From: Alloascoidea hylecoeti
Lineage: Eukaryota
NCBI GenBank assembly: GCA_001600815.1
Contig: BCKZ01000003.1
Coordinates: forward strand, 438,581-502,580
DNA: 64,000 nt
Direction of reading: 5' to 3'
The notes under the pieces were generated by a model. That model did not search any database. It saw only the letters and a list, made by a program, of their open reading frames with translations, and was not told the origin of the DNA. Positions 2,131 to 55,546 of the stretch are shown here, piece after piece (the stretch's first letter is position 1; every line of letters starts with the position of its first letter). Position numbers and translations under genes: made by a program.

Positions 2131-3339
2131 ATGTCACCAGTTCCATCAGAAGCTCTTCAAAATCTTTCAATTTCAAGTGGTCATGGTACTATTAACGTGG
2201 ATCCAGCTGCTAGAGTTAAGAAAATAGCAGGATCTAATTCATCATGGATTGAAAAACTTCCAGCTCCTACAAGAGCTAGATTTGAAAGATATAATGTTGA
2301 TTTATCTAAAGGTTATCCAATTGGTAAACAAGCAAGTGATATTCCAATTTATTTAGATGAAGCTTTAAAGATTCGATCAACACCTTTAGAAGTTGTCGAT
2401 AGAGGAACATTTGCAGATCCAGAAAAGAAAGCATTGTTTGGAGCAGCAAAAGAAGTTATTGATTTAACAAAACATATTGGAACTGAAATTGTTGGATTAC
2501 AATTATCAGAGCTTTCAAATAAACAATTGGATGAACTTGCTTTATTGATTGCCGAACGTACTGTTGTTTTTTTCCGAGATCAAGATTTATCACCACAAAA
2601 ACAGTTAGAAATAGGGAAATATTATGGTCCTGTTGAAATACATCCATCAGCCGCATATGTTCCTGATTTACCAGGAGTTGAACTTATTTGGCCTGAATAT
2701 ATTGCTAAAAATATAGAAAAACAAGCTTTCAAACAACTAATTAGTCCATGGCATACAGATCTAACTCAAGAAATCAATGCACCAGCAATTACTCATTTAC
2801 ATAACGATACAATTCCTTCTGTCGGAGGTGATACTTCATGGGCATCTGGATATGGAGCTTATGATAAATTATCTCCAGCATTTCAAAAGTTTTTAGAAGG
2901 CAAGAAAGCNGTTTNNAGATCTGCNCATNGTTATNTNGANAGGNATGATCCACTTTCTGGACCAAAACATATTGAAAGAGAACATTATCTTGTCCGTACA
3001 CATCCAGTCACAGGNTGGAAATCTTTATTTGTTAATAGAAAGTTTACAGTTAGAATTGTTGGATTGGAACCAGAAGAATCTCGAATAATCTTGAATTATT
3101 TANNTGATATTTACGAAAAANNNCTNGAAATTCAAGTCAGATTTAGATGGCAACCAACCAAGCCTGGACTTGGAACCTCCGCATTATGGGATAATCGAAT
3201 TTCTCAGCATGCTGCCATTTGGGATTATGAAAATGAAGAGCCTAGGCATGGAAATAGGGTCACAACATTGGGCGAGGTTCCTTTTCTTGACCCTAACTCT
3301 ACAGGAAGAAGGGAAGCTCTTGGGTTATCAATTGATTAA
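2131..3339 (+). CDS. JLP1: Alpha-ketoglutarate-dependent sulfonate/taurine dioxygenase (TauD family)
   Basis: 402-aa ORF with IGTEIVGLQL, the WHTD HxD iron motif, GGDTSWAS, HPVT and WDNR..QH..R motifs. Contains ambiguous n bases. The symbol is a family-level call. Confidence 0.9.
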   Translation: MSPVPSEALQNLSISSGHGTINVDPAARVKKIAGSNSSWIEKLPAPTRARFERYNVDLSKGYPIGKQASDIPIYLDEALKIRSTPLEVVDRGTFADPEKKALFGAAKEVIDLTKHIGTEIVGLQLSELSNKQLDELALLIAERTVVFFRDQDLSPQKQLEIGKYYGPVEIHPSAAYVPDLPGVELIWPEYIAKNIEKQAFKQLISPWHTDLTQEINAPAITHLHNDTIPSVGGDTSWASGYGAYDKLSPAFQKFLEGKKXVXRSXHXYXXRXDPLSGPKHIEREHYLVRTHPVTXWKSLFVNRKFTVRIVGLEPEESRIILNYLXDIYEKXXEIQVRFRWQPTKPGLGTSALWDNRISQHAAIWDYENEEPRHGNRVTTLGEVPFLDPNSTGRREALGLSID

Positions 3340-3856
3340 GTGATATATTATGTGATAAGCCTCTCGTATAGTTTTTCCGTTTCCTTTAATAAAAGAATAT
3401 TATAATATGCGGTAAGCTTAAGCTTCTTATTCATTTAAAATTCATTCATTTCTCATAATAAATTTTCGAGTTTTTCATTTAATTGAGTGATGAAATCTTA
3501 TAATATGTGCCAATATCTTCATAAGTTTCTCTCAGTTGTAATAAATCTTTAACCATTTTAGACTAGAAATTCGGAGATTTTACATCTACTTTTAATTATT
3601 ATAATATTGTGCGATAGCTGGAACACACGTACGAAACCTGCAATATTATGCAGGGACCATTGGTTGTCCTATAAATATTATAATTAATTTGCCAAATATG
3701 GCAATGTCTCTGTCAAAATAATATTTAAAAAATTACTTAAAAGAACCGAAAATATAAGAATGAAAAAATAAAATATCAAAAATAGACGTCAATATAAATA
3801 TCTCTCATTCTATATTTTTGTTTTTACTTTTATTCTTTTTCTCATTTTTATTCTGT

Positions 3857-9829: not shown

Positions 9830-10210
9830 TAATAATACGGTTTTGTTCTGTTTTTGTGTTTTTCATTTCGATAAAACAACACAAAATCAAAAGGTGTATG
9901 GATGTAACAATATACCTTATTACCCTTCCGAAACAGTCTTGTAGCAGAATCTCTTTGATAACATATCAGAATGTATGAGTTAGTAAGTAATACTGAGAGC
10001 TCGGAAGAGAGGAGTAATTAATCAATTATAGTCACCGATGAATCTGCCAGAAGTTTTGAATCTTATAATTTTAGAAGTCTTATGTATATGGCATGTTTTG
10101 ATTTTCATTGCATTTGATCTTTGGTAAGCCGTATACTGCCGATTGTTCCCCCAACTAGTGACCAGTTATTTCATCAACTGACTAACGAATATTTATTGTA
10201 CATTCATGTT

Positions 10211-10282
10211 GCCTCCTTAGCTTAGTGGTAGAGCGTTGCACTTGTAATGCAAAGGTCGGCGGTTCAATTCCGCTAGGTGGCA
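10211..10282 (+). tRNA. tRNA-Thr (anticodon TGT), intronless
   Basis: Cloverleaf: GCCTCCT/AGGTGGC acceptor, GCTT/GAGC D stem, TTGCA-CTTGTAA-TGCAA anticodon arm, GGCGG-TTCAATT-CCGCT T arm; T-runs follow. Confidence 0.97.
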
Positions 10283-10901
10283 TTTCGTTTTATTTTTTCA
10301 ATCGTTGTGGTTGAATCTTTTGTGTCACTCAAAACCAGCAATTGCCGGTTATATTCTTGTGTACGCATTATAATTTCTTCAAGTTCCATATAATAGTACA
10401 GACAAGTTTATTTGCGTAAGAAGGATTCGTAGTGGGTATGGCTCAAGGAAATTGAATCACACACTGTTGAACAAAACGTTTGTTATAATAATTGGATTTA
10501 CATGTACTTCCTAATAACCCAAGGTATGAAGGAAAAAAAAGATTCAACTTTCAATTTTTACAAGTGCTTGATTAAGAATTTGAAGTAGGCTAGTTTCATT
10601 TTACACAAAACTTTACTAGAAGGCAATTAGATGGAAGGAAATATTTAATTTCTGTGTTGGCTATATTAAATTTTCAACCATATATCTACTCCATAATTTA
10701 TCTGTGCCCAATTGTTTATTGAACTTTTTTTATTATATAATCATAATCTATGCATATAAGAAAGTATTAATTAAGTATTACACCGAATAAACGTTAACAG
10801 TGTTTCAAATTTAGAAAACAAAAAGAACCAAAGAGTATACAACTACCCTGTCATAATATAGATATCATTAACAACTCATCAAAATTTATAACTTTGACGG
10901 T

Positions 10902-24100: not shown

Positions 24101-25435
24101 TCATAACTTATTTCGGAAATGTGGTACCAGTAGATCTGCTGTTTCTCTGTCAATATTATGCTTATTTCGTATATGTTTATATAATCGACTGGTTGCACCT
24201 CCACCTATATTTAATGAACCAATGACATGTGAACAGCCTTCAACTCGGCAATGGCCTTCTTTCTTTTCCTCGTCATAATTGTAAAAAAACCAACTAGAAC
24301 TTGATAGATTAGCAGTGTTAACATTCATACTAGGGTACCTAGGCTTTAGTGTTGGAATAGTTATACTGTCCAATGTACGTTTTTCTCCTGAGTCATTTGT
24401 TATCATTTTCTTGGGTGATTTAGCCTTATCATTATTCAAAGGGGATGGTTTAACCTTATCGTTATTCAAAGTGGGTGGCAACGATAAATACCGTTCAAGC
24501 AGCTTGAACTGATTAGTATCAACAAGTTTCAGAGAGCAATCACATTTAGAAATCATGTTCATAACAAGTTTATGAATTTTTTTCTGAGGAGTAATAGAAG
24601 GTGCTCTCTTGAAATAATTAACAATTGTTGGTTGAGTTTCGGATGATGATATATTTTGGAAATGTGATACTAATTCATCTGCTGCTTCTTTTTCAATATT
24701 ATGCTTAATTCGTAGATGTTTATATAATCGACTGGTTGCACCTCCACCTGTATTTATTGTACCGATGACATGTGTACAGCCTTCAATTCGGCAACGGCCT
24801 TCTTTCGTTTCATTGTCATAATTGTAAAAAAACCAACTAGAACTTGATAGATTAGTGGTGCTCAAAGTAGAGTCCCTAGGCTTTAGTGTTGGTATGATTA
24901 ATGTATGTTTTTCTCCCGAGTCACTCACTGCGGTTTCGTCGGATGATTTATCCTTAACGTTATCCAAAGGGGGTGACGACAATAGATATCGAATAAGCTT
25001 TTTGAACTCTTTAGTATTAACCAGATTCGAGGAACAAGTACATTTATCGATAATATTCATAACAAGGTCATAAATTTTTAGCTGAGGAGTAGGAGGAATT
25101 GTCTTAGGTCTCTTGAAAGAGTTACCGTTGATTGATTCAGTTCCAGATATACTTTGGAAATATGATACCAGTTCATCTGCTGCTACTCTGTCAATATTAT
25201 GCTTAGTTCGCAGATGTTTAAATAATCGAGTGGTTGCACCTCCACCTGAATTTAATGAAGCCATGACAAGTGGACACCCTTCAATTCGGCAATGACCTTC
25301 TTTCTTTTCATAATCATAATTGAAAAAAAACCAACTAGAACTTGATAAATTAGTGGTGTTCATAGTTAGGTCTCTAGACTTTAATGTTGGTATGTTTATA
25401 CCGTCTAATGTATGTTTTTCTCCGATGCCACTCAT
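24101..25435 (-). CDS. Triple BED zinc-finger protein derived from a hAT transposase N-terminus; no catalytic domain
   Basis: Three repeats of SSWFF.NYD...EG.CR.EGC...GGGAT.RL.KH.R.KH. The first two are each followed by an LVMN.I.KC.CS..LV.T..FK.L.RYL block resembling the hAT post-BED dimerisation helices. Confidence 0.8.
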   Translation of the reverse strand: MSGIGEKHTLDGINIPTLKSRDLTMNTTNLSSSSWFFFNYDYEKKEGHCRIEGCPLVMASLNSGGGATTRLFKHLRTKHNIDRVAADELVSYFQSISGTESINGNSFKRPKTIPPTPQLKIYDLVMNIIDKCTCSSNLVNTKEFKKLIRYLLSSPPLDNVKDKSSDETAVSDSGEKHTLIIPTLKPRDSTLSTTNLSSSSWFFYNYDNETKEGRCRIEGCTHVIGTINTGGGATSRLYKHLRIKHNIEKEAADELVSHFQNISSSETQPTIVNYFKRAPSITPQKKIHKLVMNMISKCDCSLKLVDTNQFKLLERYLSLPPTLNNDKVKPSPLNNDKAKSPKKMITNDSGEKRTLDSITIPTLKPRYPSMNVNTANLSSSSWFFYNYDEEKKEGHCRVEGCSHVIGSLNIGGGATSRLYKHIRNKHNIDRETADLLVPHFRNKL

Positions 25436-51300: not shown

Positions 51301-51858
51301 TTATGTGCTGGATAATTACAAGGTGGGGTACTAATTGGAAACCCACATGAGTGGGCGAAAATGTTGAAGCGGAACAATGGAAACAACGGAGTGAGATTGG
51401 AGAAAGTTACAGCTATGTGTATCTAACTACACGTCTACGGAATTGTACTCAGATGATCAGTTAACGTACCCGGATACACAATATTGTTATGTTGCAACCA
51501 CGCAGTACAAAATCAGCAATAACAGATATATTACTATAAATATTAAGTACTATATCACTAAAGTCTAATCTCATGGTTCTGGTAATATTTGTTTAATTTT
51601 CTCTTTTTTATGTTTTGTTGTGGTGTGAAATGTCTTTTACCACTAATCCAATCTCCCCACAACACATTTTTCTTTGTAGGTGAATTATATGTAATCACGG
51701 CTTTCCCCTCTCTTGGATGTCTTAATTATACCTCAAATAGTAGTAACGGAACTTTTTTTCATCCGTACAACCAAATAACATTTTCACTTATATATATAAC
51801 CTAATATTGATTCCGAATTGAAATTCCAGCTATATATTTATATATAGTATTTAATAAT

Positions 51859-51949
51859 TGTTAAAGTTCAAAGTGCCTGTTCTCCCAGTTGCGCCAAAAA
51901 GCCAATCGACTCTCTAGTGAACTGTTCCAAGAGTGTAATATATCCAACA
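51859..51949 (-). repeat. Intact LTR (91 bp)
   Basis: 51878-51949 is identical to 54531-54602 (72 of 72 bp); 51859-51868 (tgttaaagtt) recurs at 52142-52151. Confidence 0.9.
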
Positions 51950-52130
51950 CACCCCCAACCTTAGGCAGGTCACTTTACTAATCGCCATATCTGCTCACGC
52001 CCGTGATCTTTCGAGTTTCGGACTTCTTGCATTTTACTTTCGGGCCATTTATGTGTTACCCTACTAAGCCTCAACTAGACTGATGTAAACTACCATCCTA
52101 CGGCGGACTCGAACCTGTCTCTCGTGACCG

Positions 52131-52141
52131 CGCCGCTACCA
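52131..52141 (-). other. Primer-binding site, initiator tRNA-Met type (TGGTAGCGGCG)
   Basis: Directly follows the LTR-terminal CA on the minus strand; shares TGGTAGCG with the Ty1/Ty3 PBS TGGTAGCGCC. Confidence 0.8.
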
Positions 52142-52149
52142 TGTTAAAG

Positions 52150-54525
52150 TTTTTTTTTTTTTTTTCAAAAAGGCTCTATATTAAACTGCTTTTTCTATAA
52201 ATACTATATTTATAACAACCAAAAAATTGTGAAAATAAAAATACCTCTTACTAATGTTGGAGGTTCACCCATTTGTTGAGTAATGTTGTTACTTTTTATA
52301 GTAGTTTAGATGCATTAGATCATTGGATATCAGATGGCCGGGTTCAAAGGATGAGAATAATTGTGTTATAGCTCTATCGTCAATTTTCTTTTCATAAAAC
52401 ACTTTTTTGGAAAAATATTCAACAACTATATTTTCCATTTCGCAATGGTCATCCGACCCATTAAGTGAGGCTATTTCCATCCTTTTGTCCGATATTTTTG
52501 GAGACGTAACAGGTCATTTAATGATTGCCCTTGAATGTTAGTTTTTGTTATAAGTTGAGCTTTTTCTAATTTATTTTGATTTATGGACCAGACCCCTTTA
52601 TTCTTAATTATAAAAGTCAGTTCCCCCGCACGTTTCTTTATTTCTGATTTTTTAACCATCCAGTTTTTATATGCTGGAAATTTTTCCGCCAATCGAATGT
52701 GTCCTTTATAAATATATCGAACGTTATCAGCATTGGTTAGCAGAGATCGGCTAATGGAAAAGGGTCTATTGTTTTGAGAGAGATTAGAAGTGGGGTTCAG
52801 GTTCATATAGATCGCAAAGTGCGTAGAGTGTTTCTTATTGGATATTGAAGCTTTTGTAAGATCGTTTGTTAAAGATGAGGATATATAAAATTTGTCCAGT
52901 CTTCTGCTTGCTGATAATGCAGATTGGCTATCGGAAATTTGTTTCTTTGTTGGGTTTAGTTCCCGAAAGGAATCGATTAAAGAAAATTGACTCAGAATTT
53001 CTTGTAGTTGACTGACGCCTTGATCTTTAATTCTAGAGGGGATCGAAGATTCGAGAGAAGGTATTTCAACACAGTTGAAATCACCTCCCCATATTAATTG
53101 CTGTTTTGAAACACTTTGGATAAAAGGTTACATTGATTTGAAATATTCTATTCTTTCCATGCTGGTGCATAGTACATAGGAATTTATGATGGTTATTAGA
53201 TTATTTTGATATTCTATGTGAATAAGGGAAGTGTTTGCTTGAAAAATATAGCAAAATGGTTCTTTAATCTTTTGGGCGATAAGTTCCATATTTGGTGTTT
53301 TTATATTTTTGTGGACACATCTTTTAACTAGGATCATAGTCAGGCTTGAATAAACCATCTCAATTTCTATTTCGTGTAGCTGTTTTCGTAAGCTGAGGAA
53401 GTCACAGCCTCGGGTTTCTTGTAATAATAATATTTTTAAATTGTCATTGTGTATAAACCAGTTAATAATTAACGATTAAGTGGATTTTGAGAATCTTCCC
53501 ACATTTTGTGAGGCAAATTATATATACTCAGGTATTAATAATTTAAAGGAGATAGTGGTACATCCCAGGTATTGGACCCTTTTGTATTGTTGAATCGGTA
53601 TTTAATTTATTAATATGAGAACTATTGTTCCCTTTAGAAGGGCTTGAGTGATGACCGCTAGAGCGTAGAATTCTGATATTCCCAGGAGATTTCTCGGGGA
53701 AAATTGAAGGCCTCGCAGGGATATGATTAGAATCATTGAAAATGTTAGATTCTGTTACCCGTTGATTGACAGTAGACGTATGTTCAGGACGATCACTAGT
53801 GTCTGATACAACATCAGAATCCAATGAATCGTTATCAGGGTACCCTTCAGCTTTGGAATCGGTGATATCCATTGCGTCAGCCGCCTCCATTTGGTTTGGG
53901 ATACGAGGATCAACCGTGTTAGATGATGGTAGGCTTAATTGGATGGTTATCTGATTTCAAATCTTCAGCAAAGGCAGCATCTTCATTATCAGAAGAATCA
54001 TCGGTCACGGAATAATCATCCGAGGATTCACTATAGGTGCATCAGTAGTAATGACCGCCATCTTTAACAAGGGGTTCATCCTCTCCTCCATGGGAAGGAT
54101 TTGTACTAACGCGTAAAATGGTAATGAGTTCATTACCTTGATGATAGCGGACGCGTCAGGTCCTGCAAAGGCAACCAGTTGGTCACCTCTGTTAAAGAAA
54201 TAAAGTAATTTGGCCATTTTACCAGTAAGCGTTTTGTCCACCTCGTTTTTAAAGTCATCAATGGTCTTGTTATCAGAGATGATTAGTCTATACGGTAAGA
54301 ATCCGGGTTGTTTGCAGCAACTTCGGCATGGCGCAACATACTATGCACCTCATTAACAATGGGGGCAAAAAGGGGGGCTTTGATCACTGTTTCCCTGTTG
54401 GGAGGGCCAGTGACAAGATACGGTTTAGTTTTAGGTAATTTAAGATACATTTCAAAATTGTTGTCGTTTTTCTCACGTTTTCTTCAAAATAGCCAGCTTT
54501 TTGAGTGAATCAAAGTCAAGAAAAT
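52150..54525 (-). mobile_element. Degenerate L1/Tx1-like LINE derivative: ORF1 remnant, AP endonuclease, no RT, poly(A) tail
   Basis: Frameshifted ORF1 from ATG 54450 to 53543. ORF2 APE motifs in one frame: SQNV, LLQET, GGDFN (53088-53074), IDSFRELNP, RRLDKFY, STH, with in-frame stops. A16 tail at 52165-52150. Confidence 0.85.
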
Positions 54526-54602
54526 CAAAGTGTTCTCCCAGTTGCGCCAAAAAGCCAATCGACTCTCTAGTGAACTGTTCCAAGAGTGTAATATATCCAA
54601 CA
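54526..54602 (-). repeat. Main part of the interrupted LTR
   Basis: Matches 51869-51949 apart from a 4-bp (tgcc) indel. Confidence 0.88.
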
Positions 54603-55546
54603 ATAATTACAATATTTTGTCTGCACATTTTGGTCTAATTGCGTTTCTACGAGATAGCCAGCCACCGTAAACTGTATATTGGATTAAAGTCTGAAGAAGG
54701 TGCTCATCAATCAGGCCACGAAAACGCTTTAGATTAGATAGAAATCTTTGTGAGCCTTGTATTGATAATTTACCATGAAGGATCGATTTTGAGATACAAA
54801 GGTGTTGACAACTTTCGCATATGACATTTGCACTCCTAGTTTCTTATATTCAAAAGCTATGAATATGAGCCTAATATTATGATGGTTATCCTTCATTTGA
54901 GTCCTTCTACGTGCTATTTCAGTCTCTGGTAGTGATTTAATGGTTGTTCTAAAAATGGAACTTTTAAGTTACAATGATATGGAATCCCCTTTCATTTTTT
55001 GGGGGTGGTCTTCCAGAATTTATTTAGATCTTCTCAATTCTCACAATACACCACGATAACCACTTTAAGAGAACATCGACACTATTATTGGATCATATGG
55101 ATATCTATGATGTCAATATGGCAGCTTCCAATTAAACATGCCATAATGAGAAATTGGGTTTTATGAATATTGGATCCACTGAGTTCAATTTAAAAATTCA
55201 AAGAAAAATTTCAAACAGAAAACATTGAACATATATTATCAAATAATGAGATTAAATAGATTTTAGTGACATTATTTATAACAATATATATTTGTCTCTG
55301 GTTTGTAATTCGTGGTTGCAACATAGCGATGTTGTGATATCCGAATATGCTAGCTTATCTGAGTACCATCTACAGTACATCAGGTAATTTCATTCCTGAT
55401 AATTTGCGGCTAAAGAAACGTATATGACAAGAAACATCATTTGTTGTTGTAAGATCATTCTCAATCTCGCTGGCTTTGTTGTCATCTTTACCAATTTTAG
55501 ATTTAGTATGCATATCAATTAATGTATTAAACTTGTTATAGATATC

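Follow-up and report, generated by a model that had tools for sequence, protein, structure and literature searches.

Genomic context of the locus

The assembly examined here is 24.8 Mb long and AT-rich, and the genes of the window (the whole stretch of 64,000 nucleotides that was analyzed, to which positions given without a locus name refer) are intron-poor and include one match to the Pet20 family. The best PDB chain for the 6-phosphogluconate dehydrogenase encoded in the window is 2p4q, which we take to be the budding-yeast enzyme (822 bits versus 644 bits for the next chain), and the host is regarded here as a budding-yeast-like fungus. Two sets of repeats lie elsewhere in the window. Three 253-nt repeats (79-86% alike) are found on the minus strand at 24105-25398 within a 454-aa frame that has no Pfam family over the cut-off, and a 92-nt direct repeat (92%) occupies positions 1-92 and 3257-3348, the latter extending over the last part of a TauD-family gene; this pair possibly represents tandem paralogs. 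The locus under study is a TRIM on the minus strand (54602-51859) with 91-bp TG...CA LTRs, an ATAAT duplication and a 192-bp interior, whose 5' LTR contains an L1-type LINE insert of 2.38 kb (54530-52150, minus strand). The features are listed below in the direction in which both elements read.

54603-54607, unstranded: right copy of the TRIM TSD (ATAAT), the same 5 bases as at 51854-51858
54531-54602, minus: first 72 bp of the TRIM 5' LTR, identical to the corresponding part of the 3' LTR
54553-54549, minus: T5 run in the TRIM 5' LTR, read from the sequence
54549-54538, minus: A-box-like 12-mer in the TRIM 5' LTR, likewise read from the sequence
54451-54530, minus: 5' junction of the LINE with its putative 5' UTR; no frame in the ~80 nt ahead of the ATG at 54450
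53535-54450, minus: ORF1 remnant, broken by three small frameshifts and lacking 665 nt near 54035
52800-53534, minus: ORF2 APE endonuclease remnant with 3 stops
52304-52799, minus: ORF2 linker with one frameshift, near 52485
52301-52303, minus: 3-nt microhomology at the joint of a 2,347-nt deletion (RT, C-terminal domain and first part of the 3' UTR)
52166-52300, minus: LINE 3' UTR remnant, common to more than 40 tRNA-linked copies
52150-52165, minus: A16 tail, read from the sequence
52142-52149, minus: final 8 bp of the TRIM 5' LTR, between the LINE tail and the PBS
52130-52141, minus: TRIM PBS, 12 nt, complementary to the 3' end of tRNA-Met(CAT) with CCA
52105-52115, minus: B box matching the consensus perfectly, 34 bp past the LINE tail and 26 bp into the TRIM interior
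51950-52141, minus: 192-bp interior of the TRIM, with a G-rich stretch resembling a polypurine tract at its end (51960-51950)
51859-51949, minus: TRIM 3' LTR, 91 bp, TG...CA, the partner in the LTR pair
51854-51858, unstranded: left copy of the TRIM TSD (ATAAT), matching the right copy

The host element and its copia-like partner

The host element shows the features by which TRIMs are defined (a length below 1 kb, two LTRs, a PBS, a PPT, a TSD, noncoding sequence and many copies), and its copies without interruption measure ~320-396 bp. The LTR pattern has 163 matches in the genome, many of which are solo LTRs with 5-bp duplications, and 19 interiors with a B box were detected by a genome-wide pattern search (~0.03% of the genome). 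The tRNA-Met(CAT) gene of this genome that matches the PBS is probably the initiator. Locus L173 carries a copia-type gag frame (Retrotran_gag_2, E 3e-7) behind the same LTR and PBS, implying that the short LTR belongs by origin to a copia-like partner instead of being the product of a chimera with the LINE. We could not find a B box after the PBS in the copia-like partner loci L173 and L175; since the A-box-like motif is also present in the copia-like LTR without a B box, conservation of this motif is no evidence of Pol III use. An Rfam search of the TRIM gave no tRNA-like match at E values up to 10. The motifs of the TRIM may be taken as hinting at its transcription by Pol III.

The two LTRs of the window TRIM differ by 0 substitutions over 87 shared bases, and seven other TRIM LTR pairs carry 0-3 substitutions. 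The earlier note had stated that the interrupted LTR still matches its partner, which holds for substitutions but overlooks a 4-bp gap at the LINE 5' junction. At eight loci (L006, L011, L015, L016, L019, L020, L029, and L173), TRIM or copia-like copies are joined to long inverted flanking duplications that stop at or near the PBS or LTR, which may reflect aberrant integration or else an artefact of the assembly or the library.

Structure and lesions of the LINE insert

The anatomy previously read from the letters alone (an apparent 5' UTR, a frameshifted ORF1, an APE domain with stops, a linker and an A16 tail) was confirmed on the minus strand, and no RT motifs were found in the insert. The insert does adjoin the PBS end of the LTR, at a distance of 8 bp instead of the 10 bp given earlier. 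The first 6 bases at its 5' junction are either LTR-derived, which implies a 4-bp target deletion, or LINE-derived, which implies one of ~10 bp. Among the family copies found, the window copy alone covers the first 93 nt of the LINE. The APE domain retains the motifs LLLQE (53430), GDFN (53085), and STH (52827), contains stops at 53520, 53478, and 53130, and aligns weakly with the human L1 endonuclease (E 0.17-0.57). STH had been regarded as a decayed SDH; however, the C5 copy also has STH, so it is not a lesion of the window copy.

In comparison with its siblings, the insert lacks 665 nt of ORF1 (C5 copy as reference), including a zinc-knuckle-like segment present in the C5 copy, and, with the C19 copy as reference, a further 2,347 nt that reach from the linker into the 3' UTR; from these missing pieces the parent LINE is estimated at ~5.4 kb. 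Microhomologies of 3-5 nt are found at the joints of these two large deletions. The last 323 bp of the linker show 95.7% identity to the RT-bearing C19 copy. Besides the large deletions, the LINE lesions comprise 3 stops and 4 small frameshifts. The 9-mer aatcaaagt is repeated at the junction and no TSD of the LINE is evident, both as reported earlier, but the lack of a TSD is not peculiar to this copy: across the family junctions (28 of 30 scored), the mean shared flank word was 5.0 versus 4.5 in shuffled controls, and clear TSDs are absent family-wide, with at most short or occasional ones.

Contigs of the public runs X1, X2, and X4, which come from three studies, confirm the ORF1 joint as well as the three stops; those of X1 and X2 also confirm the window sequence at the linker frameshift. 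None of the public runs listed as holding the locus is an RNA run. Assembly error as the source of these lesions, which the earlier note had named as a possible objection, is thereby excluded by independent runs. The RT joint is bridged by none among the contigs listed from public runs, and the LINE 5' junction is bridged by a contig from them by 30 letters only, one letter below the threshold applied.

The LINE family and its internal deletions

The hallmarks of the L1 clade, namely ORF1 and an ORF2 with APE, RT, and a C-terminal zinc finger, are found across the window copy and the C19 sibling (RVT_1 over the cut-off and zf-RVT weak in the latter), and the poly(A) tail and 5'-truncated copies characteristic of this clade are present in the family. 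The best database relatives are APE-RT proteins of 1,100-1,200 aa with ~30-34% identity; the RT tree was built by a quick search in which 60 of 64 database rows were kept, Microbotryum rows among them.

With up to 3 mismatches allowed, a 22-mer spanning the RT joint of the window copy occurs only once in the genome, the two siblings spanning the ORF1 joint (C5 and C7) retain the missing piece of ORF1, and none of the three stops and four small frameshifts was detected in siblings covering those positions. Internal deletions that differ from copy to copy were seen in C5, C7, a C20 copy, and a C2 copy. Thus, a search for copies sharing the stops, frameshifts, and RT deletion of the window copy found none, and several copies with the same internal deletion, as expected of a non-autonomous family, were not seen. 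Neither did we find an intact parent among the RT and APE matches scored in the assembly, the numbers of which are lower bounds. The 5' truncation points of the family in the last 570 nt are clustered, as 8 of 33 lie within 30 nt of the RT joint of the window copy (p 0.0007 under a uniform distribution and 0.003 given local density, with the 30-nt span picked post hoc). The location of the joint at this cluster fits stalling of the RT there followed by a jump, as reported for Zorro3; repair after insertion may also account for it.

Several other arrangements were observed in the family. In C19, a long copy breaks a short copy at the 3' UTR position equal to the RT joint of the window copy; family copies are stacked or nested behind one tRNA gene at L031 (2134-5207), L034, L091, and L109; and the C7 copy (L032 1840-2224, G000:C7) contains pieces of SSU and LSU rRNA inside ORF1 (E 1.3e-12 and 4.2e-9).

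Relative ages of the LINE and the TRIM

The earlier note had seen an age paradox in a decayed LINE within a young LTR. Compared with C19 and C7 over 321 common sites, the window LINE carries 3 substitutions of its own and one three-way site (C19 has 9 private substitutions). In the TRIM interior, 2 of 192 sites bear a private substitution once one end-alignment artefact is dropped; a 14-bp gap in the interior was not used as a clock, since it may not be private and a related contig seems to have it. A model with one age for the stops, LINE sites, interior, and LTRs was not rejected at 1.0-1.2% (p 0.13-0.21). When the LTR pair is tested alone, with its 4-bp gap ignored, it looks younger than the LINE (p 0.03-0.04). 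Stops counted by eye in the alignment number 4 in C5 and 2 in C7, copies whose private divergence is 2.2-2.6%, and a stop clock calibrated on them gives ~2.4% for three stops, in which case 0 LTR substitutions would have a probability of 0.015. The tension between the LINE and LTR ages is mild; 87 bp are too few to make a paradox of it, and a single age of ~1% suits the LINE and TRIM together.

The LINE family lies downstream of tRNA genes

Loci for this count were chosen by LINE similarity and not by the presence of a tRNA. In the first set, a tRNA gene on the same strand ends 10-313 bp before the LINE 5' end in 41 of 41 loci, with a median distance of 48 bp over 43 tRNA-LINE pairs; L074 and L102 resemble one duplicated insertion. 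A pattern search with the 3' end gave 47 genome matches, 9 of them new, and a tRNA gene lies 30-425 bp upstream in 8 of these 9, the exception being a 37-nt match of 84%. Outside the window, the family therefore has a same-strand tRNA gene 10-425 bp upstream in 49 of 50 loci, whereas none of the 24 TRIM loci and 20 LTR loci used as controls holds a tRNA. Genome-wide tRNA scoring took in 63 candidates, which is not a genome total. The window copy is the one clear off-tRNA insertion of the family. Literature searches, mostly of open-access main texts, found no description of a tRNA-targeting LINE in fungi.

An old LINE fragment (L158, 75%) lies ~80 bp behind a weak 5S-like piece (L158 373-681, E 2.2), and a weak 5S-rRNA-like piece (L167 1962-2322, E 0.1) adjoins an off-tRNA fragment of the second LINE family described below; these hints suggest that dispersed 5S genes are possibly LINE targets as well. 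At L069 (1209-2023), a LINE 3' piece lies between two inverted copies of one tRNA gene. The matches listed include no member of the downstream family at the sole tRNA gene of the window (Thr-TGT, 10210-10283).

A second LINE family lies upstream of tRNA genes

In 27 of 31 loci of another LINE family (L102 type: L102 on G000:C8, ~614150-616140, and L125-L154), the copy precedes a tRNA gene and faces it head-on from the opposite strand. The spacing is mostly ~60 bp, and 15 of 28 tRNA pairs fall within 51-71 bp. Its RT is 31% identical to that of the window LINE family, and the two are not sisters in the quick tree. At L164 (2054-2531, G000:C45), a LINE of this second family stops ~13 bp short of a solo LTR that is of the TRIM type but diverged and has its own 5-bp duplication; 57 bp separate the LINE end from the +1 predicted from the A box of this LTR. 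The 7-kb locus contains no tRNA. For other off-tRNA copies of the second family, the feature that follows is a 5S-like piece, a gap, a decayed stretch resembling a tRNA, or a further LTR element; two cases fit no such neighbor.

Proposed history of the locus and alternative explanations

We consider it reasonably probable that the locus as a whole arose by insertion of a TRIM and then a LINE, with a Pol III lure, deletions at reverse transcription, and later decay. A copia-dependent TRIM inserted first, making the 5-bp duplication still seen at its ends, and a copy of an L1-clade family of ~5.4 kb then entered its 5' LTR with a small target deletion and without a TSD. The position within the 5' LTR bears out the earlier statement that the LINE is younger than its host. 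Factors of Pol III that guide the family to tRNA genes would, with fair likelihood, have been bound on the split A-box/B-box of the TRIM and drawn the LINE there. For the two large deletions, which are plain in the sequence, we lean slightly towards template jumps at the 3-5-nt microhomologies during reverse transcription, although microhomology deletions can arise after insertion too. The RNA template would have come from a working parent, and the copy would have been dead on arrival, making a non-autonomous lineage unnecessary. The stops and small frameshifts were very probably gained in place over ~1% divergence, as in the TRIM interior.

We infer that Pol III factors on the TRIM may have attracted the window LINE from its site, which lies between the A-box-like motif and the B box, 34 bp upstream of the latter, and from the fact that the sole clear off-tRNA copy falls in one of the elements represented by the 19 B-box interiors. 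However, the family normally lies behind the gene and here lies between the boxes, and this is a single post-hoc case. No LINE of either family was found in 24 other TRIM loci (0/24), and the window family is absent from 20 more LTR loci, so that the earlier proposal to look for further copies in this LTR yielded none.

The earlier note had proposed that the copy was already defective when it moved, as a member of a non-autonomous family mobilized in trans. In this account, a decayed RT-less genomic copy was transcribed and moved by an active member, and some lesions predate the insertion, which we regard as unlikely. It would explain why an LTR pair without substitutions encloses a LINE with three stops and four small frameshifts (the p of 0.03-0.04 for the LTRs alone) and why only the window copy, of the copies found, keeps its 5' end, as a transcribed donor would. 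Against this, no donor or sister was found, the RT joint is unique, the lesions are not in the covering siblings, and the ages agree once the TRIM interior is counted; in addition, an internally deleted Zorro3 construct is reported to have given no trans-mobilization (PMC1965478). What survives is that the copy may have lacked the RT at insertion, whereas trans-mobilization of a non-autonomous family is unsupported. Lesions unique to this copy, at a divergence consistent with decay in place, were the outcome named beforehand as speaking against the proposal, and this is largely what we observed, with the mild LTR tension remaining.

It is similarly improbable that a full-length copy landed off-target, with Pol III irrelevant, and that both large deletions were made later by microhomology repair. 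The non-canonical position relative to the B box in a single case (n=1) would suit such an accident, and TRIM copies likewise carry short deletions; but the family is on target in 49 of 50 loci, TRIMs make up only ~0.03-0.06% of the genome, and the RT joint coincides with the position of the truncation cluster.

A tandem TRIM (LTR-interior-LTR-interior-LTR) would restore the usual orientation and side of the family: the LINE would have inserted canonically downstream of the B box of the first unit, into the middle LTR behind its T5 run, before LTR recombination removed the first unit and homogenized the LTR. This would account for the young-looking LTR, and the distances involved (193-425 bp) are seen in 4 of 51 tRNA-LINE pairs. 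Nevertheless, two additional events are required and 0 tandem TRIMs were detected in the 44 TRIM/LTR loci read, which makes this course of events quite doubtful.

The LINE-LTR chimera of the earlier note, with the short LTR formed by deletion, is refuted by the copia-like gag-pol element bearing the same LTR and PBS and is extremely improbable, since the LTR has its 163 genome matches, many of them solo with 5-bp duplications, and the LINE is absent from all other LTR loci read. The repeated 9-mer at the junction and the missing TSD favored it, but the LINE family as a whole lacks clear TSDs.

Comparison with known tRNA-targeting and TRIM elements

According to PMC5911963, TRE3 of Dictyostelium discoideum is a non-LTR element placed under L1, and insertion downstream of tRNA genes was stated in 2018 to be exclusive to dictyostelid genomes, with no fungal non-LTR case given; tRNA-targeting non-LTR retrotransposons are listed for dictyostelids only in this paper and in PMC5006619. 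The yeast family resembles TRE3 in lying behind tRNA genes on the same strand at a median of 48 bp, the window copy excepted, but its host is a budding-yeast-like fungus and 13 of 43 pairs are closer than 40 bp. The second yeast family, which is not that of the window insert, resembles TRE5 and NLTR-B of dictyostelids in its upstream position on the opposite strand. Both yeast families are likened to TRE3 and TRE5 by behavior, not by descent. TRE5-A is reported to hit A/B-box loci that have no tRNA context (PMC5391098).

Zorro3 of Candida albicans is a yeast L1 with a zinc-knuckle ORF1, a short 5' UTR, no TSD, and template switching (PMC3956500 and PMC7175516), and it is reported to target poly(A) tracts without a link to tRNA genes (PMC1965478). 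The window family, compared by description only, shares with it a zinc-knuckle-like ORF1, a short putative 5' UTR, and the lack of a clear TSD; in contrast, no 5' poly(A) flank is present at the junctions here, and a poly(A) target with A tracts on both flanks was not encountered.

A yeast with one LINE family behind tRNA genes and one before them would be a second example of the same pair of solutions, and in a host group with good genetics a TRE3-type mechanism would become testable. It is conceivable, although we hold it to be somewhat less than probable, that this yeast evolved, apart from social amoebae, a TRE3/TRE5-like pair of L1 elements that read Pol III complexes and not sequence; the off-tRNA insertions (the window and L164) would then be footprints of the TRIM as a Pol III unit whose promoter is split between LTR and interior. 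The window locus is the exception that joins a yeast LINE targeting tRNA genes with a TRIM possibly driven by Pol III, and it may be an in vivo sign of the TRIM binding Pol III factors. It also supplies the only recovered 5' end of the family. Little is gained from the age paradox and the non-autonomous family in their original form.

Helenus elements have A and B boxes within tRNA-like LTR sequence, with fungal reports from Pucciniales and Agaricomycetes (PMC10886601, Kojima 2024). The window element is similar to Helenus (TRIMp3) and Cassandra in being a TRIM with A and B box motifs, a 5-bp TSD, a copia partner, and a tRNA-Met primer. It differs in that its B box is located in the interior beyond the PBS and that Rfam gives no tRNA likeness; because the B box is outside the LTR, the window TRIM does not fall under Helenus as defined there.
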